Positions 3,563 to 19,049 of a stretch of 20,000 bases of DNA are shown here, piece after piece. Both the position numbers and the translations under genes were made by a program. The notes beneath the pieces were generated by a model that was not told the origin of the DNA, did not search any database, and was given only the letters and a program-made list of their open reading frames with translations. How positions within the stretch are numbered: the stretch's first letter is position 1; each line of letters opens with the position of its first letter. The DNA comes from an uncultured virus (IMG/VR IMGVR_UViG_3300020472_000022) (taxonomy: Duplodnaviria; Heunggongvirae; Uroviricota; Caudoviricetes), in the IMG/VR virus record IMGVR_UViG_3300020472_000022, one strand, 5' to 3'.

Positions 3563-5929
3563 TTAACCACTTAAATCAGTAGCTATTGCTCCGATTAATG
3601 CTTGGATACTTTCTACGCTTGCACCATATTTGTCAGGGTCTGAAGCTATTGCAGTATTGACAAGTTGTGCAATCCTATTTCGATTATTCTCAGCATTTCT
3701 AAAATCATAATCTGCTTGATCTCTTAATTGTTGCCACAAGAAGGCTTGTCCTGTTTGTGACATTGCAAAAGCATTTGATGCATTCTGCATATTGATTTGA
3801 TTTTGCATTGCTGTATTAACTGTATTAACATTTCTACGCCATTGAACATTAGATTGTTCTACAGCTGCAGTATTTTGTGCGTTCCATTGATTACGAGCAA
3901 AATCTTGATTTGCATTGAACTGTTCTACTTGAGTTGAAAGTTGTGCATTAAATCTATCAACATCAGCAGCTCTACCAGCATCTCTTGCAGCAGCAGCATT
4001 AGTTGATGTAACATTAAACTGCTCCATTGTATTTTTCTGAGAAACATTAAATTGTTCTACTTGAGCATTTAAACTAGCCATAAATTGCTGTGTTTGATTT
4101 TCACTAGTTGAATTGAATTGTTTAGCAGCATTACTTGCAGATTGATTAGATAACATTCTTTGCTGTGTTTGTTGAGCTTTTAACATATTGGATTGTTGTC
4201 TATTACTAAGATTTGCCATATCTGTTTGTAAGAATGCTTGAGCATTTTGTATTTGCGCTCTTTGATAAAAATCAGCTTCTGCTAAGTTTGCTTGTGATGT
4301 TAAAACTGCATTTTGAATAGCAGCTTGTTGATCATTACTAGCTTCTGTTAAAGAAACAGTCTGTAAAAATTTACTATTAGACAAAGCAATTTGTTGGTCA
4401 GAACTAAACTGAGCCATATCTAAATTAAATACTTTATCAGCATTTGACAAAGCTACTTGTTGTCTTCTCTGTGCATTAGCTTCTTCAGCTTGAGCCTCTA
4501 TATTTTTTTGTTGAGAAACACTTTGTTGTATAGCTTGTGCATTGCTTTGAGCAATAGGTAAAGCACTTTGTATAATAGCATTAAATAAATTATCTCTACC
4601 AACTGAAGATGCTGATAGTCCTCGTCTTGCTAACATAGCTTCAACATTTGCTACTGCTGGAGCAGCCCATGCAGGAATCTCACCTTCTTCAATACCTGTT
4701 AGTAATCCATCAATTTGAGTAGATACTAAAGCTTCTTCAGGTAATCCTTCAATAATTCCTCTTTCTTCTTCAGTAAAATCAGCTAGTCTATCTTCTAAAG
4801 CTTCTGGATCATTTCCTATTGATTGAATATCTTCATCAGATAATCCTGCTTTACTTAGTTGTTTTTTAGCTCTTGTAATTCTAGATAAACTTGTTCCAGC
4901 ATTTTGAGCTGCTTTAGCTTTTGCTTCAGGACTAAGAGTTCCTACAACTCTGTCTGTTAATGCACCTTCAGGAATTTCAACATCAGCTCCCTCTACTGGT
5001 GCTACTCTGTCGACTTTAGCAGCTTCAGCTAAAGAATCATCTCCTACTTCTCCTTGAGCAGTATCAACTGTGACATCTTCATCTACAAGAGTTGGATCAT
5101 ATGTTTTAGTATCTATTTGATCTGGGGTTGTTACAGTATCTGCAGTTCCTTTAGTTACTGTTTCTGGATCAACTCCTTCAGCCCTTGTACCGGTTACAGG
5201 TGTAGTAGCATCCATTCTTGTTTGTCTTTGATCAACTCCTTCTTGAAGTGGAACAGCCTCAGGAACTCTAACATTTTCTGGAAGAACACCTGCTGCAGCT
5301 TCTTCTGGTGTAGGAGGAACATCGCCAACTTTATATTTTTGAGTAGGCGTAGGAGGAGCTGGAGGAGGAGGAGGAGTTGCAGAAGCAAAAGTTGTAGTAT
5401 CTTTTAATGCATCTAAATCTAGTTTCTCTCCGGGTTTTAATGCCGAACCAAAGCCAGTACCAAAGCCACTTGGCATTGGTCTAGTAGATCCTCCCGGTGG
5501 AGCTGTTGCAGCCGTTTGAGAAACAGGTTGTCCTTGTTGTTGTACAGGTTGTCCTGCAGGTACTGGTGTAAATTGAGGTTGTTGTGTAATAGGAGGCTGT
5601 GTAGGTGTCGTTATAGGTGTAGATTGTTGTGTTATACCGCCTACATTTCCACCAGTTTGTATTGCTTCTGAAGCACCACCACCTGTAGGTTGTTGTACAG
5701 GTCCTTGAGTTGGAAGATCCTTTCCTCCAGAACTACCAAGAAAAGGGGTTAAATCTAATCCTCCTTCTCTTTCGGCTTTCTGAGATTCTGCCCACTCTTT
5801 ATAATCCATACTGTATTCTCTACCGGAATCATAATCTTTCCGTAATGGCATTGGTCCACCAGCTTGATAACTAACCCTACCGCCTTTGCGATAGTCCTGT
5901 CTCTTTTTATATTGTCTTTTACGAGCCAT
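3563..5929 (-). CDS. Putative internal virion/ejection protein, 788 aa, with Pro/Gln/Thr-rich N-region and Gln/Asn/Ala-rich coiled-coil C-region
   Basis: Long ORF. The C-terminal third carries QFN-type motifs spaced 11 residues apart. Confidence 0.65.
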   Translation of the reverse strand: MARKRQYKKRQDYRKGGRVSYQAGGPMPLRKDYDSGREYSMDYKEWAESQKAEREGGLDLTPFLGSSGGKDLPTQGPVQQPTGGGASEAIQTGGNVGGITQQSTPITTPTQPPITQQPQFTPVPAGQPVQQQGQPVSQTAATAPPGGSTRPMPSGFGTGFGSALKPGEKLDLDALKDTTTFASATPPPPPAPPTPTQKYKVGDVPPTPEEAAAGVLPENVRVPEAVPLQEGVDQRQTRMDATTPVTGTRAEGVDPETVTKGTADTVTTPDQIDTKTYDPTLVDEDVTVDTAQGEVGDDSLAEAAKVDRVAPVEGADVEIPEGALTDRVVGTLSPEAKAKAAQNAGTSLSRITRAKKQLSKAGLSDEDIQSIGNDPEALEDRLADFTEEERGIIEGLPEEALVSTQIDGLLTGIEEGEIPAWAAPAVANVEAMLARRGLSASSVGRDNLFNAIIQSALPIAQSNAQAIQQSVSQQKNIEAQAEEANAQRRQQVALSNADKVFNLDMAQFSSDQQIALSNSKFLQTVSLTEASNDQQAAIQNAVLTSQANLAEADFYQRAQIQNAQAFLQTDMANLSNRQQSNMLKAQQTQQRMLSNQSASNAAKQFNSTSENQTQQFMASLNAQVEQFNVSQKNTMEQFNVTSTNAAAARDAGRAADVDRFNAQLSTQVEQFNANQDFARNQWNAQNTAAVEQSNVQWRRNVNTVNTAMQNQINMQNASNAFAMSQTGQAFLWQQLRDQADYDFRNAENNRNRIAQLVNTAIASDPDKYGASVESIQALIGAIATDLSG

Positions 5930-6420: not shown

Positions 6421-6442
6421 TTACATTTACATTTATTGTTTT
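6421..6442. repeat. 22-bp direct repeat, copy 1 (TTACATTTACATTTATTGTTTT)
   Basis: Identical to 6859-6880. Confidence 0.95.
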
Positions 6443-6816
6443 TTTCTTTTAAATATTTTCCAATCTTTAGAACGCCTTCCATTTTTAATAAGAGTTCCTT
6501 TTTGTTCTAGTTCTCCATTCTCATAGAAAATTTCACATAGTCCATTAGGAATACCATCTTTATGCATAGTTTTTCGTTGTATGTTTCCGTTTTCCCAATA
6601 CCAAGTTGCTAATCCAATTCTATATCCTGCTCTATTATTTGGTAAATTTCCTTGTACAACTCTATTAGAAGGTCTATTTTTTGGATCACCAGTTTCATAC
6701 TCTTCTGGAAAAATTTTAGTTCCTATTGGTTTATTAATAAATTCTTTTGGCATCTCTACATAGTAACCAGTAAATTTTAATGTTTTATTATCTTCTTGGA
6801 ATCTTTCAATAAACAC
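6433..6816 (-). CDS. MORN-variant/YwqK-like repeat protein, 127 aa (GTG start)
   Basis: GLATWYWENGNIQRKTMHKDGIPNGLCEIFYENGELEQKG has two G-x-x-x-x-Y/F-Y/W-E-N-G MORN-variant units. Confidence 0.7.
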   Translation of the reverse strand: MFIERFQEDNKTLKFTGYYVEMPKEFINKPIGTKIFPEEYETGDPKNRPSNRVVQGNLPNNRAGYRIGLATWYWENGNIQRKTMHKDGIPNGLCEIFYENGELEQKGTLIKNGRRSKDWKIFKRKKQ

Positions 6817-6851: not shown

Positions 6852-8717
6852 TTATTTTTTACATTTACATTTATTGTTTTCTAACTCTTCAACTTTAGCA
6901 GACAGTTCTTGGACTGACTTAACTAACATAGGTACAAATTTACTATAGATTAAACCATACTGATTACCATCATTACTAAGGGTAGTTGTAAGGTTTGTTT
7001 TATCAGCTATATTATAACCATACTCAGATTCTAATTTTTCTACATCTTGAGCTAAGAACCCAGTATCTAACCAATCTTCTTTGTGAGTACCATCAGTAAT
7101 TAAGTCTTTAAAGTCTTTGCCTTGTTCAACATATTTACTTCTTTTGTCCCATCTATAAGTAACAGGTTCTAACTTATTAACAAAGTCTAAACCCATTTCC
7201 ATTGGTGTTACATCTGTTTTATCACGCTTATCAGAAGCTATTGACCAAGCTACTTGAACATTTGCACTAGTAATAGAGGCATGACCAAGACATATATGAT
7301 TACTGTCTGTTGTTATATTTCCACCCGGATTTCCTGTTCTACCTGCATCAGTACCTAAAAATATATTATTAGCACCGCTTGACACCGCAAAACCTGATCC
7401 TTGACCCAATGCAACATTATAATTACCTGTAATTGTACCTCCACCCATAGCATCAGTTCCGATTGCTGTGCTACCATTACCTGTGGTTTGAGCATCAGCA
7501 GCTCTAGCACCAATCATAGTATTTGATACGCCTGTGCTTAAAATTTTTCCTGCTTCATAACCCAAAGCCGTATTATAATTAGAAGTTGCTGAATCAAAGT
7601 CTTGTGTTTGTAAAGCTCCATAACCTACAGCAGTTGCACCACTTCCTAACTGATCTCCTGTTAAAGCATTTGCTCCTACAGCAACATTATAATCAGCATC
7701 TTCTAGAGCATCACCTGCTGAATGACCTATAAAAGTATTATAAACTCCTACAGTCATACCATATCCTGCATTAGCACCTACTGCTGTATTTCGTGTAGTT
7801 GTAACTGATGTAAAGTTTTGTACTCCTAAAGCTGCATATCCTATAGCAGTACTCTGATCTCCTTTAGTGTCTGATCCTAAAGATGAAACACCTATAGCAG
7901 TATTAAAATCAGCATCCGAAAGAGCATCACCTGCAAATGCACCCATAATTGTATTGTTAGTTCCTGTACTTATTGTAGTACCAGCATTATATCCAACGGC
8001 TGTATTATCATTATTAGCATCATTATTTTGTGTGCTTAGTGTCCCATAACCAACAGCCGTTGATCTACTACCTGTATCTTCTGCGTCTAAAGCTGCATAA
8101 CCTATGGCTACATTGTTATCCCCTGTCGTTAAAGCCGTACCAGCTTCATCACCAATAACAGTATTATAATTACCGCCACTTGCAATGCTGTTACCTGCAT
8201 TAACACCTGCTCTAAAGTTACTTGTTCCTGCTGAAGCTGTGATTATATCTGCACCATCTGAAAATGTTGTATCTCCAGCAATAGAAAGGGTTCCTGCCAA
8301 ACTTAAATCTGTAAACGCATCATAAACAACCGCTCCAGAGCCACCTCCATCCGTTGCTATTACTTTTACCTGACCTGCCAAAACAGCGACATTAGCTCCT
8401 GATCCTTGAGAAAAAGTAAGCGTATAGGATGTTGCATTTTCAATAAACCAAACTTTACTAACAGTATTTGGAGCTAGAGTAACAGTACAAGCTTGACCTC
8501 CTCCTGTGCATTTTAAATACAAACTTCTGGCTTCATCGGCAGTTCCATCAGCCATTGTGATAGTATGTGTCGAAGCATCTGCTATGGCTTCTGAGCCATA
8601 GCTAAAGGCAGAAGCAATTTGTTCGATGCTGGCATTAAGTTTTGTTCCCCAGTCACCACTATTCTCTCCAGTAGTTTGTTCTTCAATCCTAAGATCATTT
8701 ACATAAGTGCTTGCCAT
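6852..8717 (-). CDS. Tail fibre/spike with beta-helical 14-aa repeats and a C-terminal intramolecular chaperone (peptidase S74-like) domain, 621 aa
   Basis: Repeated N-T/V-A-V/I-G-Y-x-A turns. SDKRDK autocleavage-type motif, then GFLAQDVE and YSKFVPMLVKSVQELSAKVEELE, which are typical of S74 chaperone domains. Confidence 0.85.
   Translation of the reverse strand: MASTYVNDLRIEEQTTGENSGDWGTKLNASIEQIASAFSYGSEAIADASTHTITMADGTADEARSLYLKCTGGGQACTVTLAPNTVSKVWFIENATSYTLTFSQGSGANVAVLAGQVKVIATDGGGSGAVVYDAFTDLSLAGTLSIAGDTTFSDGADIITASAGTSNFRAGVNAGNSIASGGNYNTVIGDEAGTALTTGDNNVAIGYAALDAEDTGSRSTAVGYGTLSTQNNDANNDNTAVGYNAGTTISTGTNNTIMGAFAGDALSDADFNTAIGVSSLGSDTKGDQSTAIGYAALGVQNFTSVTTTRNTAVGANAGYGMTVGVYNTFIGHSAGDALEDADYNVAVGANALTGDQLGSGATAVGYGALQTQDFDSATSNYNTALGYEAGKILSTGVSNTMIGARAADAQTTGNGSTAIGTDAMGGGTITGNYNVALGQGSGFAVSSGANNIFLGTDAGRTGNPGGNITTDSNHICLGHASITSANVQVAWSIASDKRDKTDVTPMEMGLDFVNKLEPVTYRWDKRSKYVEQGKDFKDLITDGTHKEDWLDTGFLAQDVEKLESEYGYNIADKTNLTTTLSNDGNQYGLIYSKFVPMLVKSVQELSAKVEELENNKCKCKK
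6859..6880. repeat. 22-bp direct repeat, copy 2 (encodes the tail-fibre C-terminal NNKCKCK)
   Basis: Identical to 6421-6442. Confidence 0.95.
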
Positions 8718-9863: not shown

Positions 9864-10145
9864 TTATAATCTCTCCAAAATTAAAGCCATATCTTTATGA
9901 CCTTGTTCTCTTAATTTATTAGCTAAAGTTGTTTTGTCATTTACAATCGCTTCTTTCATTGCATGAACAATAATATGAAAGATGCGTGTCTTAAACGCTC
10001 TAGCTTGCTCTTTTATTTTTGGATCGGCAGTGTCAGCTATGCTAAGGATCTGGTATACTGTTCTTTCCGCTATTTCTTCTGGTGTAAAACCACGATGGTC
10101 TGTGGTACTTACTTTTACTGTTCCAGGCTGTATAAAGGACAGCAT
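9864..10145 (-). CDS. Hypothetical protein, 93 aa
   Basis: Translationally coupled to both neighbours. Confidence 0.7.
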   Translation of the reverse strand: MLSFIQPGTVKVSTTDHRGFTPEEIAERTVYQILSIADTADPKIKEQARAFKTRIFHIIVHAMKEAIVNDKTTLANKLREQGHKDMALILERL

Positions 10146-10762
10146 TATTGCAAAGGCTTAAAAGCCATTCGCATTGATACTTGTCCTTGTGATCTTTCAT
10201 TGCTGATGTTCATATCAGCAATGGCTTTTTCGTAAAGACCAAAAAATGTTCCTAGTCTTTCATCATTCTGTAAATATGGTGCGCTTTGAATAAGCGCTCC
10301 ATATAAATAAATATCTGGTGATAAAGATAAAAGCCAATTACTTGTATTGCTATCTGATAAAGCTTCTACTTTTCCATAATAAACAACTTCTGCTGTATAG
10401 CTTGCATCTGGAGATGGATATACTTCAAACTCGGTTCCTACCATCGTAAAATATTTTGGTCTACCTGATGCACTAGAAGCATGTCTTTTTTCATTAATTT
10501 GTTCTTGTGTAATATATTCAAGTGGCTCTATTGGATCAGTCTGTAGATTTAAAGCTACTGTCTGCATCCAGTCAGTAGGTGTAGCACTATATCTTTCAGA
10601 TATAGTTGCTGTTGATCTTGTTACCATTTTTCTATGTCTAATAGAACGATTAAACTGAGCTTCAGCTAAAGTAATAAAATCTGGTATCACTGAAGATAAA
10701 TCTGAACGATTTAACCAATCTCCAACGCTACTTTGTAATTCACTATAAGTAGTAATTGCCAT
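10145..10762 (-). CDS. Head-to-tail adaptor (tail tubular protein A-like), 205 aa
   Basis: TYSELQSSVGDWLNRSDL...IPDFITLAEA...SGRPKYF...SNWLL...PDIYLYGAL pattern. Located two genes downstream of the capsid gene. Confidence 0.75.
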   Translation of the reverse strand: MAITTYSELQSSVGDWLNRSDLSSVIPDFITLAEAQFNRSIRHRKMVTRSTATISERYSATPTDWMQTVALNLQTDPIEPLEYITQEQINEKRHASSASGRPKYFTMVGTEFEVYPSPDASYTAEVVYYGKVEALSDSNTSNWLLSLSPDIYLYGALIQSAPYLQNDERLGTFFGLYEKAIADMNISNERSQGQVSMRMAFKPLQ

Positions 10763-11137: not shown

Positions 11138-11159
11138 AGGAGAGGGTTGCCCCTCTCCT
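11138..11159 (-). terminator. Stem-loop downstream of the capsid gene (probable terminator/mRNA stabiliser)
   Basis: Perfect 9-bp stem AGGAGAGGG/CCCTCTCCT with a GCAA tetraloop on the minus strand, 20 nt after the capsid stop. The U tract is weak (GATCTTT). Confidence 0.7.
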
Positions 11160-11179: not shown

Positions 11180-11411
11180 TTAAGAAACGCTTAAGTCGTA
11201 AGCAGCTCCCAAACCTTTTTCATTTCTAACTTCTAATCCACCTTCAAAGATCAGCATGCTTTTCTCAGCATCACCAGTCTTAGCCAGTTTTACTTCCTGA
11301 ATAGGTCGCAGTGTTGCTACTGCTGCTAACTCAGGATCAAGAACATAAGCATCTCTTGATCTTGAGAATCTATTAGGTACGATTGAAACAGAACCGAAGT
11401 CACTCACATAA
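11180..11411 (-). CDS. Major capsid protein, exon 2
   Basis: (T)TAT GTG AGT GAC TTC = YVSDFGSVSIVPNRF...LRP...LAKTGDAEKSML..EGGLEVRNEKG, the expected C-terminal part of this HK97-fold capsid family. Confidence 0.9.
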
Positions 11412-11663
11412 CAATTTTCTTCAAAATAAGTCGCTAACTTATTCCCGTTATTAACTGCTCCATGTCGCCATGAAGTTGAGACTATATCATCATCCGTTCT
11501 GGATGGATGGCGCTTCCGCTCGCTTGAGCGTACTCCTTTCGGATAGTCGTTGCACCTTCCCTTTCGGGCTTGGCTCAATATTGTCTTTGTACTAAAGAGT
11601 TTCATTGAATTCACCATCTTATTGCCTGCGTATCCCTACGCAGCGATGCTTAACATTGAGTCA
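11412..11663 (-). ncRNA. Group I self-splicing intron, IA2-like, 252 nt, no homing endonuclease ORF
   Basis: P1: exon GAUGU pairs with GCAUC, with the U.G wobble at the 5' splice site. Terminal G at 11412. P2 CUGCGUA-GGGA-UACGCAG. P3 GAUGGUG/CGCCAUC. P4 UUCAAUG/UAUUGAG. P5. P6 with CCC-GAAA-GGG. R element GCAACGACUAU and S element AUGAUAUAGUC form P7. P7.1 UCC-GAAA-GGA. P7.2 CGCUC-AAGC-GAGCG. P8 CAUCC/GGAUG. P9 UUCAUG-GCGA-CAUGGA. Distal stem AAUAAGU/ACUUAUU. Confidence 0.93.
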
Positions 11664-12382
11664 ACATCAGCAGCCCCTACGATCACCGTTGGACCATCAC
11701 TCGGAGCAAGATACCTGTTCGCAGCTATACCTGAAAATCCTGATACAACTGTCTTTACATGTGCCCCGACCATCAGCATTTGCGGATCACCGCCACTATT
11801 CCAAGTGCTTTGTAAAACAGCTTTTAAAATAGTTTCAGTAATTGCTCGTGGTGTTCCATCAGTACATTGAGTGCCATCGCCAGGTGAAGAACCACCAGAA
11901 CCATGAGAGACATTAGTTGCTACCCATGAGGAAAGTGAACCTGTCTCTCTAGCAGTGGAAGTGCCCCCACTAACCTTCGAATTATTCACCCCACAAAAAT
12001 TTAACTCAATATCTCGTTTTAGCTCACGGCCAGCTTTCACTAATTGATAAGCATGTTCTGATTTTCTACCTGCTTCATTAATTACTTCTAAGTTGTCAGC
12101 AATGATAAAAGTCTTACGCATAATTTGTGAAAAATTAGTACGAAGAGTTGTTGCTGCAACCGCAGAAAAAGATGAAACATCATCACCATCAAGTTGTGCA
12201 TTTGCTGCTGCATTTGCAAGTTGGTCTTGTTGCCAACTAAAGGTTGTGTTAGTTATTTTTCTTTTACCGATATTCGAAACGAATGGAGTGTCTTGAGGAG
12301 ATACATTCCAAATTACATTGGATAAATCCTCTCTCATTCCAACGGCTGAATACCTTGTAAAAGTATTAGTTACAATTGCCAT
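11664..12382 (-). CDS. Major capsid protein, exon 1 (spliced product 316 aa)
   Basis: GAGGT RBS. MAIVTNTF...VGMREDLSNVIWNVSPQDTPF...ELKRDIE resembles the SU10/DUF5309-type capsid family (recollection). Follows the scaffold gene. 719 + 232 nt = 951 nt, an intact frame. Confidence 0.9.
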
Positions 12383-12394
12383 TTTTATTTACCT

Positions 12395-13432
12395 CTATAT
12401 CATGTTTTTAATAAGATCTACCGCATCACCGAAGCGGCCACTTTTTTGTAACTTCTGTTGAGATTGCTTGACCATTCTATTTTGTGCATTAGGTGTGCTT
12501 TTACTAGAACCAGGTCTAACAGTTTTTTTACTGTTAGACTGTTTTGTTCGAGCTTTAGACACTCTCTTAACACCTTTATCATATAACCATGCCTTTCTGA
12601 GTAATTTGACATGATCTGCTTTGATAAGTTGTTGCATTTCTTCGTTGGTAATTCCTTGATCTAGTAACCACTCTCGTAGTTGACCTTTCTCATTACCAGC
12701 TACCTTATTGTCTTTCCATTCTGGAATCACTTCAGTAAGCTTTGCATTTTCTACAGTTATGACTGATTGAAGATAATTAGCGTGTTCCTTTTCGTTTGTT
12801 TGCCTGATTCTTTCTTGCTCTTGCTGTATAGCTTCGAGCTTTTTCGTTCTGGCCTCTTCTTGGGTTCGCCATTGTCTTTCTTGTCTTGCTGCTTCTATTG
12901 GATTAGCTTTATATAAAGCATCCCAATCGGGTTGACTTTGAGGTGTATCTGCTTGTAGTTGTTGTTCAAGCTGCCCAATTAATTGAGCATATTGTTGTCT
13001 CTCTTGAGTTACATTCGCAAGTTCAGAATCATAAGCTTTACGCTGTTCAGCTAGCTCTTGCGATTTTCTAGTGTAAGAGGCTTGACGAGAATAGCCTTTT
13101 TTAAGTTCATCAAGGGATACCTGCTCTTCTTGACCATCTACTTTGATGTCAAAAGATTCAGGTTCCTCTATAACTTCTTCTTGCTCTTCTGCTGTCTCAC
13201 TTTCTTCGGCAGAAACATCGTCTAGTTCGAGTTCTTCAGACTCCTCTAAAGCTTGCTCTTCTAGTTGTTCACTCTCTGCCTCGCCTTCAGCTAATGCTTC
13301 AGACTCATTATTAGCCGCTAAATCTTGGCTTTCACTCTCAGGTTGCTCGTTTGAGTCCTGGTCAAAAAGATCTTCCATAATTTGTTTGGCTTCACTTAAA
13401 TTGATCGGACCAGTTGGTTTTGTATCTGCCAT
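12395..13432 (-). CDS. Capsid scaffolding protein, 345 aa
   Basis: Very acidic N-terminus, then IKVDGQEEQVSLDELKKGYSRQASYTRKSQELAEQRK, a coiled coil and a basic C-terminus. Lies between portal and capsid. Confidence 0.85.
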   Translation of the reverse strand: MADTKPTGPINLSEAKQIMEDLFDQDSNEQPESESQDLAANNESEALAEGEAESEQLEEQALEESEELELDDVSAEESETAEEQEEVIEEPESFDIKVDGQEEQVSLDELKKGYSRQASYTRKSQELAEQRKAYDSELANVTQERQQYAQLIGQLEQQLQADTPQSQPDWDALYKANPIEAARQERQWRTQEEARTKKLEAIQQEQERIRQTNEKEHANYLQSVITVENAKLTEVIPEWKDNKVAGNEKGQLREWLLDQGITNEEMQQLIKADHVKLLRKAWLYDKGVKRVSKARTKQSNSKKTVRPGSSKSTPNAQNRMVKQSQQKLQKSGRFGDAVDLIKNMI

Positions 13433-13677
13433 TATTGCTCCTTGTTTATTTTACTTTTTAAAAAAATTGCATCATCTACTGATGCTTTCATTCTTGCAAA
13501 AAATCTATTTGCTCCAAGCATTTCTGCATGGATCTCTTCTCTTTGCTTTTCATTCTTTGACGATACCCATTCGTCAAAGAGATCGGTTTCAAGAATGTTT
13601 ATGATTTCTTGCAGCAATGGATCATTTACTAATTTTGCTACTTCATCTCCAAATTTAATATCATCTTGGTCTGCCAT
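13432..13677 (-). CDS. Hypothetical protein, 81 aa
   Basis: Overlaps the portal end and is coupled to the scaffold start. Confidence 0.7.
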   Translation of the reverse strand: MADQDDIKFGDEVAKLVNDPLLQEIINILETDLFDEWVSSKNEKQREEIHAEMLGANRFFARMKASVDDAIFLKSKINKEQ

Positions 13678-15775
13678 TGTTTATATTCCCCACTGGTTGT
13701 AAATTAGCTTGTTTAATAACTTCTCTATCTCTATCGGCTAAAGCCTTTATAGAAGCGACATCAACTTGAGCACCGAACTTTGCTTGAAGCTCTGCTGCTT
13801 TTAATAACCAATTAGCCTCATCATCATCTCTTTGCCTATCATCATCACGCATCATCTTTTCTCTATCGAGTTCAAGTTGTGCTGCTTTCTTTTGTATGTC
13901 AGCTTGTATCTGTTGCATTTGTACCTGGATTAATTGTTCATTAATATCAGGTTTAGGTTGTTGCGGTGGTGGTGGTTGATAATTAGCTGGATCACTAACA
14001 AAATTATTAACATCTTTAAAGCCTGATAGTTGCACTATCTGGCTTAAAGTATTGTAATACTGTTGCATGTTTACTAATGGATTTTCAGGACCTAATTGCT
14101 GAAGTAGTTGTTCTTGTTTTTGTAAAATGGTTTGCAAGAAAGCTAATCGTTCTTCATCAGATCCTTTTCCTAAAGCAACATTAACAATGACATCCATATC
14201 TGAGTTCCAAATTCTAGGATCAATTGGAACAAATTTATTAGTTAATCTAACCATTCTTTCTTGATCTTGATGAGTAATGATTAAATCAAAAATACCTTTA
14301 AATAATTGCTTCATACCTGTTGTTGCAAAATTTCTAGCAATTAATTCAGTTCTTTGTTGAGCTGCATTAATAGTTTGTGCAACTGCTAATTTAGTTGAAG
14401 ATTGTAATGCTGATGGATCAAGACCATCAGCAGCTCTTGAGACTCCTGTTCTGTTTTCTCTAACTAAATCTAAATACTCAAGCATTGGAAATGCTTCCTT
14501 ACCAATGTAAGGCATTGAGAACGGAATAACACTGCCTGGATTTCTCATTCTAATAATACCGCCAACTTCAGTATTTAAAACATCATCCATTGATGCTTGT
14601 CCTTCAACAACACCAACTCTAGGATGTGTTGATAAAGCTAACGAATCTAAAGAAGATCTTAAAACCATAGATTTAATTTTTTGAACATCCATTGTGATAT
14701 CTGCAATAGATAAACCAAAGAATTGATGTGGTTCTGGATCTGGCATGAAAGTAGCAAAAGGAATATGTATTGCTGGCTCATTTAACAAAATATCGTAATT
14801 TTCACCAATAGAACAAATCCTTCTTCTTTCAGCTATTCCATCACCATCCATATCAGCATAAATATACGATTCAACATATAAAGCCCTTCTCATTGAAGGA
14901 TCACTTGAATCATCATCAAAACTATTTAAGTCTTGGTTACGAGCTACGCTTTCTTGGTTGAAATCAAAATCTGTTTCGTTAGTAGCATAGCTACTTACTT
15001 CATCTTCTGAGTAACCCATGCTAACTAATTCTGAAATAGTTAAATACCTACGATGAGCTACAATATCAGCATCCTCTAAAGTTCTTGCATTTCTATTTAT
15101 TAAAAACTCTTCAGGAGGCACGCTTTCTATTCGTACTCTCCCATTGGGGATAGTACGAATAACCCTTACATTGTGAGAGTTAATTGGATTGCCCAGTTCG
15201 TCAACATTATCTGATGACTGAACAGTTTCTAAAATTTCAATTTCTATTCTTGGATCTGAAGTTAATGTCGTTAAAGAAATATCATCAATATTTTCTAATT
15301 CATAAGTTTCAACTTCGCTTTGATCATCCCAATAGAATTTAACAATTCCGCATTTCTTTATTAGAGCATCTTTAAAAGCTGATAATAAAACTGAGTAGCC
15401 ATCATTATCATTTTGAAAAACATAATTACAGTAATCAGTTGCTTGTTTAGCAAGAGGAACATCTTCTGGTCCTATTGGAACAAACTCAACTACATTTGAT
15501 CCACCATGAAAGATCCTCATTAACGATGGTAGTATTGCTTGAACAACATCTCTAACATCCATTGATACTGCTTGTGATCTACCGCTTTCTTCATTGCCAA
15601 AGGGCCTACCTAAATAATACTCTTCAGACTCAGCTCTAATAGGGCTTATCGTATTGTCGATAAAATCAATCGCATCATCTATTTCACTTTTTAAAATAGA
15701 TTGTAATAACTCATCAGACATTCTTTCAGGTTCGATAAGAACATCTTCTAATTCTTCTTCGTAATCTTTTTCCAT
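13661..15775 (-). CDS. Portal protein (P22-like with C-terminal coiled-coil barrel), 704 aa
   Basis: EEYYLG.PFGNE..GRS..VS.DV.D, FKDAL..K.GIVK.YW, VPPEEFLI, ENRTGVSR motifs. Gln-rich helical C-terminus. Size and position fit. Confidence 0.9.
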   Translation of the reverse strand: MEKDYEEELEDVLIEPERMSDELLQSILKSEIDDAIDFIDNTISPIRAESEEYYLGRPFGNEESGRSQAVSMDVRDVVQAILPSLMRIFHGGSNVVEFVPIGPEDVPLAKQATDYCNYVFQNDNDGYSVLLSAFKDALIKKCGIVKFYWDDQSEVETYELENIDDISLTTLTSDPRIEIEILETVQSSDNVDELGNPINSHNVRVIRTIPNGRVRIESVPPEEFLINRNARTLEDADIVAHRRYLTISELVSMGYSEDEVSSYATNETDFDFNQESVARNQDLNSFDDDSSDPSMRRALYVESYIYADMDGDGIAERRRICSIGENYDILLNEPAIHIPFATFMPDPEPHQFFGLSIADITMDVQKIKSMVLRSSLDSLALSTHPRVGVVEGQASMDDVLNTEVGGIIRMRNPGSVIPFSMPYIGKEAFPMLEYLDLVRENRTGVSRAADGLDPSALQSSTKLAVAQTINAAQQRTELIARNFATTGMKQLFKGIFDLIITHQDQERMVRLTNKFVPIDPRIWNSDMDVIVNVALGKGSDEERLAFLQTILQKQEQLLQQLGPENPLVNMQQYYNTLSQIVQLSGFKDVNNFVSDPANYQPPPPQQPKPDINEQLIQVQMQQIQADIQKKAAQLELDREKMMRDDDRQRDDDEANWLLKAAELQAKFGAQVDVASIKALADRDREVIKQANLQPVGNINNGRPR

Positions 15776-16576: not shown

Positions 16577-17980
16577 TTATACAATTCCTTTTAGTTGTCT
16601 TTTAATGGGTTTCTTCCAGTTGGCAAACCCTGTTTGCCCTCCAGCGGTTGCTGCATTGCTAGCAAAAGTCAGGCAAACAGCATCAGCTAGATCAGGAGAA
16701 GCAATTCCTCTTTTCTTCATTTGGTCCTTGCTTTCAATAATCATCTTCCCAGAAGAGGAGAATTTATAACGAGGTGAGACTAATTCAGCTAATAAATGCT
16801 CATTTTTTGGGATTCTTACATCCCTTTGTTCTAGCCAGGCTTTTACCTTAAACCACAATTCAGCCCTTAAATTCTGATAAGTTTTACTTAGAGCTGGAGC
16901 TTCAGAAGTGTTGATCCCAATACAAGGCAAGCCAAGCTCTCTTAAACGATCAACTACCCCTCCTCCAACTCCAATACTATCAACTAAGATCTCTACTGGT
17001 TTTAGATCATTATCAAATAAAGCATCATATTCAGCTTTAATTGCACCACATAACCTCATGGTATCTAAGCCTTTCCAACTCTTAATGTCCTTTATAACGC
17101 GACCTTGCCTAATAGCAAGGGCGCTAGAATTGCTTCCAAATCGTGCTACATCTAATCCCCAAATAACATTGGCTTTTTTATCTAGTTGAATATCCCTATT
17201 TTGAGCATCCACCACTAAACTTAAAGGAATGACAGTATCATCTTCTGATGCTGGAAATTCCCCTAAAACCCTTACTCTATAAGCATTGCTCTCTTCTCCA
17301 TATCTGATCTTCATCTCCTCAATGTATTCCTTAGAAACTCTAGGAGAGTTGATACAACTAACTTTTCTAGTCCACCAAGAGTCAGCCATTCTATGATGCG
17401 TATCAAAGAAGAAACCGCTTGATCTGGTTGGATTTCCTAGCAATATGGTCGTTGCATTATCTCCAGACATAGAGCCAGCAGCACTTTCAAAAACAGATTC
17501 GGGTATTCCTGATGCTTCATCTGCGATGAGCATCACATTCTCACTATGTACGCCTTGCAAAGCTTCTGGTGTTTCTGCTCTTGAAGTTCTACAACTGATA
17601 AAAGCCTCTGTTGGAGAGGCTTTTAGAAAGATACGATCAGTCTTGGTTTCAAGCAATTCAGACAGCACTTTTGGTAATTCTTTAAGCCATCGTTTAGATT
17701 CAGCAAATAAAGCATCGAATAACTGAGCGCTGGTTGGAGCAGTAACGACTACCTTACAAGGATACCTGGTCAGTATGAACCACAACATACCCCAGGATGC
17801 AGCAGTAGACTTTCCAGTTCCATGTCCTGATCTGACCGAGATTCTTCTTTCTCCTTTAGCGATTGCTTGAAGAAATTCAGCTTGCCACTCGTCAGGCTCT
17901 ACTTTAAGAATGTTTTTAACAAATGCAGTTGGATTATTGCGATATGCTTTAACGAAATCTAAAAATGGATTATCAGCCAT
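16577..17980 (-). CDS. terL: Terminase large subunit, 467 aa
   Basis: PDEWQ Q-motif, Walker A SGHGTGKS, Walker B LIADEASG, motif III GNP, nuclease GLDVAR and SPDLADA. Confidence 0.95.
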   Translation of the reverse strand: MADNPFLDFVKAYRNNPTAFVKNILKVEPDEWQAEFLQAIAKGERRISVRSGHGTGKSTAASWGMLWFILTRYPCKVVVTAPTSAQLFDALFAESKRWLKELPKVLSELLETKTDRIFLKASPTEAFISCRTSRAETPEALQGVHSENVMLIADEASGIPESVFESAAGSMSGDNATTILLGNPTRSSGFFFDTHHRMADSWWTRKVSCINSPRVSKEYIEEMKIRYGEESNAYRVRVLGEFPASEDDTVIPLSLVVDAQNRDIQLDKKANVIWGLDVARFGSNSSALAIRQGRVIKDIKSWKGLDTMRLCGAIKAEYDALFDNDLKPVEILVDSIGVGGGVVDRLRELGLPCIGINTSEAPALSKTYQNLRAELWFKVKAWLEQRDVRIPKNEHLLAELVSPRYKFSSSGKMIIESKDQMKKRGIASPDLADAVCLTFASNAATAGGQTGFANWKKPIKRQLKGIV

Positions 17981-18242: not shown

Positions 18243-18366
18243 TCTTCTTCTCCTTTTTTTTATCTTTTTTAAAGCATGAATAAGTTGCTCTACATCTTTG
18301 ACAAATACCTTTTTCTAAACGAGCGTCATTACCACAAAAATCACATTTAGCAATTAAGAAGCCCAA
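18232..18366 (-). CDS. Small zinc-ribbon-like protein, 44 aa (TTG start; absent from the ORF track)
   Basis: MGFLIAKCDFCGNDARLEKGICQRCRATYSCFKKDKKKEKKNER*. Two CxxC pairs, AAGGA RBS, overlaps both neighbours. Confidence 0.55.
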   Translation of the reverse strand: MGFLIAKCDFCGNDARLEKGICQRCRATYSCFKKDKKKEKKNER

Positions 18367-19049
18367 TTTTCCTTCTTGCCACAATGGCGCATGATTGTTG
18401 AAGGAGAACAAGGAAAAAACTTACTTGTAATTTCATCAGCAATTTTTCTAAAAGGAACATGATCAGATCTTCTTTGTCTCATAAGCTTGTCAGCTTCCGT
18501 CTTGTGTTTAGATTCAATTAAAAATGATTCCTTACCATTGCCCTTCAATTCCCATCCAAAGGGAATAGGACCGCCTGTATAGCCTTTAGATTTGATGTTA
18601 GGTAAAGACATTGCAGCTTTAGATTCTTTGCCTTTAGTAATACGATCTTTAATCATTAATCTTTCGTAATCTGCAAAAGAAGCCATGATGTTAATCATTA
18701 GTTGAGCTACGATATTTTTATCATCAGTTAGATCACCTAAATCTTTAGTAATAACTCTTACACCTAATGATTTAAGTTTTTCTATGTCATTTAAGCAATT
18801 CCTAAGATGTCTCGTAAAGCGATCTAGTTTAGCAACGATGATTACATCTCCTGATTTGAGTTCAATATCTTTCATAGATGGTCTTTCAAAGAAATTAGTA
18901 GAACCTGAAACGCCCACATCTTTTAAAATTTTTTTTATTTTTAGGTTCTCTATCATTGCTAGACCAGCAACTTGTCGTTCCTGGTCAGCAATGCTGGTGT
19001 TATCAGCTTGGCTAAGTGTAGAAACTCTTGCATATCCATAAACTGTCAT
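18354..19049 (-). CDS. Serine recombinase (resolvase/invertase family), 231 aa
   Basis: YGYARVST catalytic Ser motif, RP, GDVIIVAKLDRFTR, FADYERLMIKDR, G.YTGGPIPFGW and a C-terminal helix-turn-helix-like region. AGGAGA RBS. Confidence 0.92.
   Translation of the reverse strand: MTVYGYARVSTLSQADNTSIADQERQVAGLAMIENLKIKKILKDVGVSGSTNFFERPSMKDIELKSGDVIIVAKLDRFTRHLRNCLNDIEKLKSLGVRVITKDLGDLTDDKNIVAQLMINIMASFADYERLMIKDRITKGKESKAAMSLPNIKSKGYTGGPIPFGWELKGNGKESFLIESKHKTEADKLMRQRRSDHVPFRKIADEITSKFFPCSPSTIMRHCGKKENWAS

Follow-up and report, generated by a model that had tools for sequence, protein, structure and literature searches.

When the reading frame of a major capsid protein gene breaks off and resumes 252 nucleotides (nt) further on, is the intervening DNA translated, does it mark a dead gene, or is it removed from the RNA by splicing? 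The question is raised by a 20,000-nt stretch of DNA from an uncultured tailed virus (IMG/VR record IMGVR_UViG_3300020472_000022; Caudoviricetes), the whole of which is referred to here as the window. On its minus strand, the capsid open reading frame (ORF) begins with ATG at 12382, runs to ...VIVGAADV, continues through eight codons of the intervening sequence (DSMLSIAA) and stops at a TAG at 11638-11636. The capsid frame is picked up again at 11410 with YVSDFGSVSIVPNRF (YVSDFG...) and terminates at a TAA at 11182-11180. A preliminary description made from the sequence had interpreted positions 11663-11412 as a minimal group I self-splicing intron. Here, we report that 11663..11412 is a complete group I intron that splits a major capsid gene of the SU10 family. 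We consider it very probable that this intron is a working, ORF-less passenger ribozyme of the phage IA type, a reading in which we infer the catalysis, the role of the in-frame stop codon and the efficiency of splicing.

A group I intron interrupts the major capsid gene

Examination of the window with Rfam covariance models identified a match to Intron_gpI (RF00028) at 11673..11458 on the minus strand that scores 86.6 bits against a gathering score of 50 (E 3.5e-21) and extends over the full model (1-253). Intron_gpI is the only Rfam family above cut-off in the 20-kb window, and the E value together with this exclusivity rules out a chance match. Excision of 11663..11412 by script joins GCT GAT GT|T TAT GTG and gives a protein of 316 amino acids (aa). 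Exon 1 (11664..12382, minus strand) contributes 239 codons and the GT of a split Val codon, and exon 2 (11180..11411, minus strand) contributes the T of that codon, 76 further codons and the TAA. Because both flanking bases are T, the splice cut could shift one base to the right. Only a cut after 11664, however, sets U11664 opposite G11649 in helix P1 and leaves an intron that ends in G11412, and the alignment of P1 to the covariance model chooses this same cut. The terminal G is present in 11 of 11 aligned introns, and the U-G pair of P1 is retained in all three sequences that could be aligned there.

Both exons encode parts of a single capsid protein, and neither contains a frameshift or an internal stop. 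The Pfam family SU10_MCP (PF17236; cut-off 24.1 bits) matches exon 1 at profile positions 2-204 of 292 (192.2 bits, E 1.9e-56) and exon 2 at positions 219-291 (78 bits, E 1.1e-21), and both pieces match phrog_1328, the major head protein, in PHROGs. The last 16 residues of exon 1, which are unaligned, fill the 14-position gap in the profile, leaving no room for an 84-aa insert. This SU10-family gene is the sole major capsid gene of the phage.

If the 252 nt are an intron, capsid genes that lack them might be expected to read directly across the predicted junction. Searching proteins with exon 1 as the query gave 1499 candidates, 923 of them relatives at E <= 1e-5; 120 of these relatives were listed. 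The best relative, P0003, is 316 aa long, is 96% identical to the exon 1 protein and reads GAADVYVSDFGS (GAADVYVSDFG) over the junction. Its gene is carried by L082, a metagenome contig of 34,208 bp. At the DNA level, L082 and the window are 94.6% identical (1040/1099 aligned bases), and their alignment is interrupted only once: exactly 252 nt, 11663..11412, are absent from L082, with identical sequence on either side. The boundaries, the joined sequence ADVYVSDF and the 316-aa product given in the preliminary description are therefore matched by a natural intron-less allele as well as by the Rfam alignment. Two of the checks that it had suggested came out in its favor: the covariance model returned a full-length match above cut-off, and homologous capsid genes include intron-less alleles and carry no 84-aa insertion at the site.

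The intron has no room for a gene of its own. Its longest stop-free run is the exon frame itself, at 74 codons, and no homing endonuclease ORF is found in it, the 252 nt being wholly occupied by helices. Likewise, no endonuclease family was detected among the 26 window ORFs scanned against Pfam, where the sole recombinase is a resolvase-type ORF at 18354-19049.

Secondary structure and covariation

Helices were mapped by hand on the window sequence, all on the minus strand. P1 (11644..11669) pairs the end of the 5' exon (11669-11664) and the first intron bases with an internal guide (11652-11644), in agreement with the covariance-model alignment, and is followed on the map by the P2 hairpin (11626..11643), the loop of which carries the in-frame stop UAG at 11638-11636. 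The 5' strand of P3 (11618-11612), P4 (11608-11603 with 11580-11575), P5 (11598-11584), P6/P6a with its GAAA loop (11574-11554) and the 3' strand of P3 (11512-11506) are placed by the covariance model, the hand map and covariation alike, whereas the 5' strand of P7 (GACUA, 11544..11548) and its partner 3' strand (11484-11480) are placed by the model and the map. Relative to the Rfam consensus, there is a 29-nt insert between the 5' strand of P7 and the 3' strand of P3, which folds as P7.1 (11543-11534, UCC-GAAA-GGA) and P7.2 (11530-11517, CGCUC-AAGC-GAGCG). P8 (11505-11491) is followed by J8/7, and beyond the 3' strand of P7 the map and covariation give P9 with a GCGA loop (11475-11458), P9.1 (11455-11447) and P9.2 (11443-11425), then a 3' tail to the terminal G at 11412. 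As read from the sequences, the first bases of exon 2, UUA (11409..11411), can pair with guide positions 11652-11650 (UAA) to form P10. Every pair proposed in P1, P2, P3, P4, P5, P6/P6a, P7, P7.1, P7.2, P8, P9, P9.1 and P9.2 is standard, and this includes the core stacks P3-P8 and P4-P6 with the P3/P7 pseudoknot. Three loops are of the GNRA type, namely L6 (GAAA), L7.1 (GAAA) and L9 (GCGA).

To assess covariation, we counted the window-derived structure on an alignment of 11 related capsid-gene introns from the residue-240 region (299 columns). Standard pairs fill 92.8% of 680 cells, as compared with 34.2-44.6% when the partners are slid by 1-3 columns, and 34 of the 72 pairs change on both sides (116 cells). 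Shuffling never reached the observed value on four of five measures (0/500), and did so in 59 of 500 shuffles on the fifth, that of further pair types. All helices but P6 and P7 contain pairs that covary or vary on one side. P3, P4, P5, P6a and P8 covary, and pairs are changed on both sides in 4/5 of P7.2, 5/7 of P9, 2/3 of P9.1 and 6/7 of P9.2; P7.1 is paired in 90.9% of cells and P7.2 in 89.1%. All five pairs of P7 are invariant in the 11 sequences. P1 and P2 could be scored in three sequences only, and here the guide follows the exons. A change of GAU to GAC in exon 1 is matched by A to G in the guide of L168 and L182, and a change of U to C in exon 2 is matched in P10, again by A to G, such that L168 has CUA with UAG. 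Counting against the strength of this result, the 11 sequences represent few lineages and the structure was derived from the window itself, so the contrast with the controls is inflated. As far as sequence comparison can tell, the related introns nevertheless support every predicted helix from P1 to P9.2, including P7.1 and P7.2. The full P1-P9 core, GNRA loops, paired P7.1 and P7.2 and lack of an ORF that had been proposed earlier are upheld by the helix map, by covariation and by the likeness to the T4 nrdD intron considered below.

The same alignment bears on whether the 252 nt could be translated. Were the UAG read through or reassigned, the gene would encode a 400-aa capsid protein with an 84-aa insertion, and three features of the sequence are in keeping with this: the exon frame is open across the intron except for the UAG at intron nt 26-28, the length of the intron, at 252 nt, is divisible by three, as are the 258 nt of the L168 and L182 introns, and that frame was stop-free in only 147 of 20,000 shuffles of intron nt 29-252. 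However, L168 differs from the window by indels of +4 and +2 nt that put the frame out of register in places, with the result that no protein sequence is conserved in it, and eight relatives inserted at a nearby position (site C', below) have 2 to 9 stops in that frame. Recoding of TAG was rejected on account of these further in-frame stops and of the use of TAG as the end of 3 of 21 window genes, including the scaffold gene located just upstream. As the match to an RNA family, the covariation and the junction contigs described below all indicate removal of the 252 nt, we regard translation as scarcely conceivable, and return to the intron as a spliced element.

The intron is polymorphic in the population

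A near-identical viral record, G001, was used as a stand-in for the genome of the window. Clustering at 90% protein identity places the capsid protein among 59 members, 15 of which were listed. Among these 15, intron-bearing forms of 248 aa account for five sequences on 43 contigs, and intron-less forms of 316 aa for six sequences on 40 contigs. In a second cluster of 10 members, that of L036, the balance differs, with 255-aa forms represented by eight sequences on 28 contigs versus one 323-aa sequence on two contigs. An intron-bearing protein, P0126, carries the exon 1 substitutions of intron-less P0003. Whether a gene has the intron is therefore not tied to its exon haplotype, be it because of recombination or because the intron was repeatedly gained or lost. 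When the window is compared with L082, the differences are clustered in patches (11687-11746, 11775-11792, 11945-12003 and 12150-12241) with long identical stretches between them, and haplotype blocks are common to intron-bearing and intron-less proteins. Together, the patches and shared blocks point to what is probably frequent recombination among co-occurring phages. A co-conversion tract beside the intron was also considered and found no support, as the 23 nt upstream and approximately 80 nt downstream are identical to L082 and the nearest patch lies 24 nt upstream. The upstream difference patch of the window is unlike the L036 group.

Taken with the related introns described below, these data indicate that the intron is polymorphic in the population and that its lineage repeatedly occupies capsid genes. 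One practical outcome is that gene callers report the capsid gene as two ORFs, one of 248 aa and a spurious one of 145 aa. Because the protein collection contains the truncated form (30 contigs), capsid-based surveys of marine podoviruses miscount such genes. The spurious ORF (11180..11617) is created by the open exon frame past the UAG (11412-11635, minus strand), an openness shared by L168 and L182.

Splicing in environmental RNA

The capsid gene of the window is found in many marine sequencing runs. Fourteen DNA-type runs hold 88-100% of its sampled sequence words, although four of these may be the source sample, and six RNA runs from five studies hold 34-76%. Shares of words are no evidence of splicing in themselves, and contigs were therefore compared from three RNA runs belonging to three studies (X15, X16 and X18) and from one DNA-type run (X7). 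Each of the three RNA runs contains a contig that joins 11664 to 11411 with exactly 252 nt skipped, the cut being the same within the one-base uncertainty of its placement. In X15, this contig measures 922 nt, is unbranched and of depth 13.4, has no mismatches to the window exons and is present in the joined form only. The spliced product of the window is equal to none of the six intron-less proteins listed from its cluster, from which it differs by 8-12 residues.

Several observations weigh against taking these junctions as proof of splicing. Run X7, which is of DNA type by conjecture, contains the intron form as well as a joined form with 30-nt flanks of the window type, so an intron-less DNA allele could be the source of the junctions in the RNA libraries. 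In X16 the exon 1 contig breaks 31 nt before the junction, and a second path may exist there. In X18 one contig reaches 9 nt past the exon 2 boundary into the intron, indicating that unspliced RNA or DNA is present. Finally, the RNA evidence consists of assembled contigs rather than raw reads. The search for the junction in environmental RNA that had been suggested in the preliminary description thus delivered exact joins in X15, X16 and X18, while the joined form in X7 makes a DNA origin for them possible. On the basis of exact-junction contigs in three RNA libraries, we conclude that splicing in nature is likely, though not proven.

A rival idea is that the intron has degenerated and lost the ability to splice, with the capsid copy dead and the record derived from a defective phage or an assembly chimera; the evidence for splicing is indirect, and the intron-less form in X7 would then possibly be the only one that works. 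Against such decay, all core helices are intact in the window, P7 is invariant among the related introns, the U-G pair has been retained along with the terminal G, and the exons are without frameshift or stop. Chimerism and a defective copy also fit poorly with the occurrence of the exact 248-aa exon 1 ORF on 30 contigs, with a 100% identical stretch in an independent viral record, and with the 14 DNA-type runs that contain 88-100% of the sampled words, even allowing for the four that may be the source sample. We judge a non-splicing remnant to be very improbable, and a functional intron remains our reading.

A model for splicing of the capsid transcript

How might a functional intron of this kind be removed? 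The phage is taken to be an uncultured marine podovirus of approximately 34 kb, and the intron sits inside the Val codon of the conserved capsid motif GAADV|YVSDFG. The capsid gene would be transcribed as one RNA, and ribosomes arriving from exon 1 would halt at the UAG in the P2 loop, nine codons into the intron. As translation is proposed to stop there, the catalytic core would not be unwound by ribosomes. Consistent with such a role, the exon frame of all 11 related introns runs into a stop no more than nine codons past the splice site, and an in-frame stop that keeps ribosomes off the core is a known arrangement in T4 introns. The folded core would consist of P3-P8 and P4-P6, supported from the periphery by P7.1/P7.2 and P9-P9.2, and the guide would pair with the exon end GAUGU and bring U11664 to face G11649. 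Free guanosine, once bound by P7, could then attack after U11664, P10 (UUA with UAA) would align exon 2, the terminal G11412 would be exchanged into the guanosine site, and ligation of the exons would give GCUGAUGU|UUAUGUG, encoding the 316-aa capsid protein.

The preliminary description had raised the idea that the intron could gate capsid production. Under this reading the intron is real but conditional, with slow or factor-dependent splicing timing or limiting the supply of capsid protein. It draws on the fact that capsid protein cannot be made from the gene without splicing, and on the in-frame stop kept near the 5' splice site of all 11 introns, which would link translation to folding. 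Intron-less alleles, however, are about equally common (40 versus 43 contigs among the listed cluster members), and this near equality disfavors a required function. The intron also occurs on several exon haplotypes, a pattern more in keeping with a neutral or selfish passenger than with a regulator that the phage needs. No regulatory element was found, and the RNA contig of X15 is in the joined form only. We therefore consider a conditional switch improbable, and favor an intron that is spliced out as a passenger.

Related introns in environmental capsid genes

Of the 120 relatives listed in the exon 1 search, five are 254-258 aa long and end in GAADV+NS(E/I/T)(L/I)GVAA*, that is, with the same break in capsids that are 61-65% identical. 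By tblastn, the capsid gene is split in 11 of 161 loci around P0003 relatives, two of the 11 being the near-identical record of the window itself. Rfam identified introns in six of six split loci scanned, with seven matches of 59.8-86.6 bits. In P0003 numbering, insertions are found near residue 51 (L043/L115, L080 and L120), near residue 125 (L080, L120 and L160) and at residue 240 (the window, L036, L037, L039 and L108). Two introns are present in a single gene in L080 (1037-1276 and 1537-1757) and in L120, the L043 intron lies at 268-521, and the capsid genes of L164 and L176/L177 appear to be split three times.

A further position, site C', is occupied in L173, L176, L178, L183, L211, L232, L235 and L239, whose SU10-type capsids are 30-35% identical. 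It is located 6 nt, or two codons, downstream of the site in the window (DLYV|SPYG versus ADV|YVSDFG). At site C' the guide is re-tuned (GUACGU/GCGUAC), giving a P1 pairing of the kind seen in the window, whereas P2 is missing and P10 can be extended to 4-5 bp.

An 18-nt core motif common to the window and L036 is present at more than 122 loci in viral metagenome contigs, 80 of which were fetched. Seventy-three upstream ORFs were scanned against Pfam, with the loci not de-replicated, and 25 of the 73 belong to capsid families: SU10_MCP in 16, Phage_capsid_2 in four and Phage_capsid_3/4 in five. The remainder comprise endonucleases in 11 (Endonuclease_7, LAGLIDADG, GIY-YIG or HNH), NrdD in two, Pol III alpha in two, a primase-helicase in one, Pol A below cut-off in one, and 31 without a family. 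Because the motif was chosen from capsid introns, the count of 25/73 describes this lineage and not phage introns generally. Downstream ORFs confirm that the gene is split in the SU10 and Phage_capsid_2 cases tested. In the Phage_capsid_2 (PF19821) genes of L170, L210, L222 and L231, introns that share the core motif interrupt the coding sequence at profile position ~60-62, and in the Phage_capsid_3/4 genes of L180, L184, L196, L209 and L214 an intron with the motif is found near the 3' end. Outside the capsid site-C group, the closest relatives are the introns of L198 and L202, which are 85% identical over intron nt 19-207 and follow a 98-aa upstream ORF without a Pfam family.

In all, relatives with the core motif occupy SU10-type sites near residues 51, 125 and 240 and the spot two codons further on, with up to two or three introns per gene, as well as two or three other capsid families. 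With or without the intron, exon haplotypes interchange within the same waters. The several sites, the 25/73 capsid ORFs and the comparable frequency of both alleles suggest that, in environmental viromes, this intron lineage is found in capsid genes routinely rather than exceptionally. A more far-reaching idea, which we advance tentatively and think doubtful as it stands, is that a lineage of small IA-type introns, many of them ORF-less, has specialised in capsid genes of phages from marine and other environments and is still moving between co-infecting phages without an endonuclease of its own, perhaps by reverse splicing or with a nuclease supplied in trans, using conserved capsid motifs as landing pads. 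To us the most interesting question is by what means capsid genes continue to be colonised by a lineage that brings no endonuclease with it, and with natural population data the spread of endonuclease-less introns becomes testable.

Comparison with known phage introns

Among introns that have been studied, the closest look-alike is that of T4 nrdD, which scores 105.3 bits on RF00028 (record NC_000866, 45652-45883, annotated as group 1A with I-TevII). The T4 intron has an insert (39 nt) at the identical model position with the same flanking letters, the shared motif UCAAGCGA and folding into P7.1 and P7.2, and the 3' strand of P7 together with P9 is near-identical (CUGCAUGGUGACAUGCAG in one intron versus CUUCAUGGCGACAUGGAG in the other). 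The two differ in that the T4 intron has the I-TevII endonuclease gene after its core and sits in a gene of nucleotide metabolism, whereas the intron in the window is ORF-less and in a capsid gene, and overall the cores are only 54% identical (117/216 aligned bases). By likeness of sequence, then, the intron probably fits the phage IA2 type. Two points tell against so precise a label: for the window intron, it is based on likeness to T4 nrdD, an intron of the IA2 type, and the T4 record itself says only "group 1A". The helices P7.1 and P7.2 mark subgroup IA more generally. The earlier statement that they mark IA2 is thus borne out as regards the presence of both helices, and is looser than it was put as regards the subgroup. 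The orf142 gene of Staphylococcus phage Twort, a late gene, contains small ORF-less group I introns of the IA2 type with P7.1 and P7.2.

Most phage group I introns had been described in the preliminary account as residing in genes such as those of DNA metabolism, and matches in cultured phages agree with this background. The core of the intron matches 318 records at 68-89% identity over no more than 79% of its length, and the genes annotated at these positions encode DNA polymerase, thymidylate synthase, terminase and endonuclease. Only the core was matched in this DNA search of the phage collection, with no record covering 80%.

It had further been argued that a ribozyme in the gene for the major capsid protein is unusual. 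This was overstated, given the 25 of 73 capsid ORFs upstream of related introns and the cases already in print. Lactococcal phage Tuc2009 has a group I intron in its major head protein gene (PMC2504315; PMC3706429). The resemblance is that of a group I intron in a major capsid or head gene of a tailed phage; Tuc2009 differs in being a siphovirus of a Gram-positive host with another capsid family, and its intron is likened to that in the window by description only. In mycobacteriophage LittleE, splicing of a capsid-gene intron was seen by reverse transcription PCR (RT-PCR), and the same paper reports a tail-gene intron in BAKA of 265 bp that lacks an endonuclease gene and is spliced by RT-PCR (PMC3706429). 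Both share with the window a location in late structural genes, an exon ending in U and an intron ending in G, and the BAKA intron is close in size to our 252 nt; the LittleE intron differs in being 819 bp long with an endonuclease ORF, the hosts are actinobacterial, and its type is left as "most likely a group I" (PMC3706429). The crAss-like phages of the Delta and Zeta groups also have group I introns in their major capsid protein genes (PMC7886860). These are gut phages with another capsid family, and their introns were located via endonuclease domains, whereas the intron in the window is ORF-less and marine (PMC7886860). In Jug phages, 2513 group I introns have been predicted (PMC12880540). 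We found no published report of capsid-gene introns in pelagiphages or marine podoviruses, in a search outside of which subscription journals lay, and neither a preprint on Pectobacterium phage Jarilo nor a paper on Lactobacillus plantarum phages reports a capsid intron. With the intron in the window, an uncultured marine podovirus joins the few phages in print whose capsid gene depends on splicing of its RNA. Knowledge of how group I introns work is left unchanged.

Genomic context

The genes that neighbor the capsid gene are likewise encoded on the minus strand and make up a typical head module. By Pfam and PHROGs, these are a large terminase (16577-17980), an SU10-type portal (13661-15775), a scaffold (12395-13432) that is located just upstream of the capsid gene and ends in TAG, an SU10 adaptor (10145-10762) and a tailspike with a Peptidase_S74 domain (6852-8717). 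The phage has no close relatives in culture, the best capsid of a named phage being at most 53.1% identical. A scan for promoters around the capsid gene was uninformative (five sites versus 5.0 expected), and no tRNAs are present in the 20-kb window. By pattern match only, a terminator-like GC hairpin with a T-run is found at 11140..11155 (minus strand), 25 nt past the capsid stop codon. Such hairpins are common downstream of highly expressed capsid genes, and this one fits that pattern.

Three further minus-strand ORFs are of note. A 788-aa ORF at 3563-5929 has no match in Pfam or PHROGs. Upstream of the terminase gene, the ORF at 18354-19049 encodes 231 aa with the N-terminal domain of a resolvase (serine recombinase; E 2.3e-26), which may hint at a temperate lifestyle or at a DNA invertase. 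Adjoining the tailspike gene, a small ORF at 6433-6816 contains a variant of the MORN repeat.

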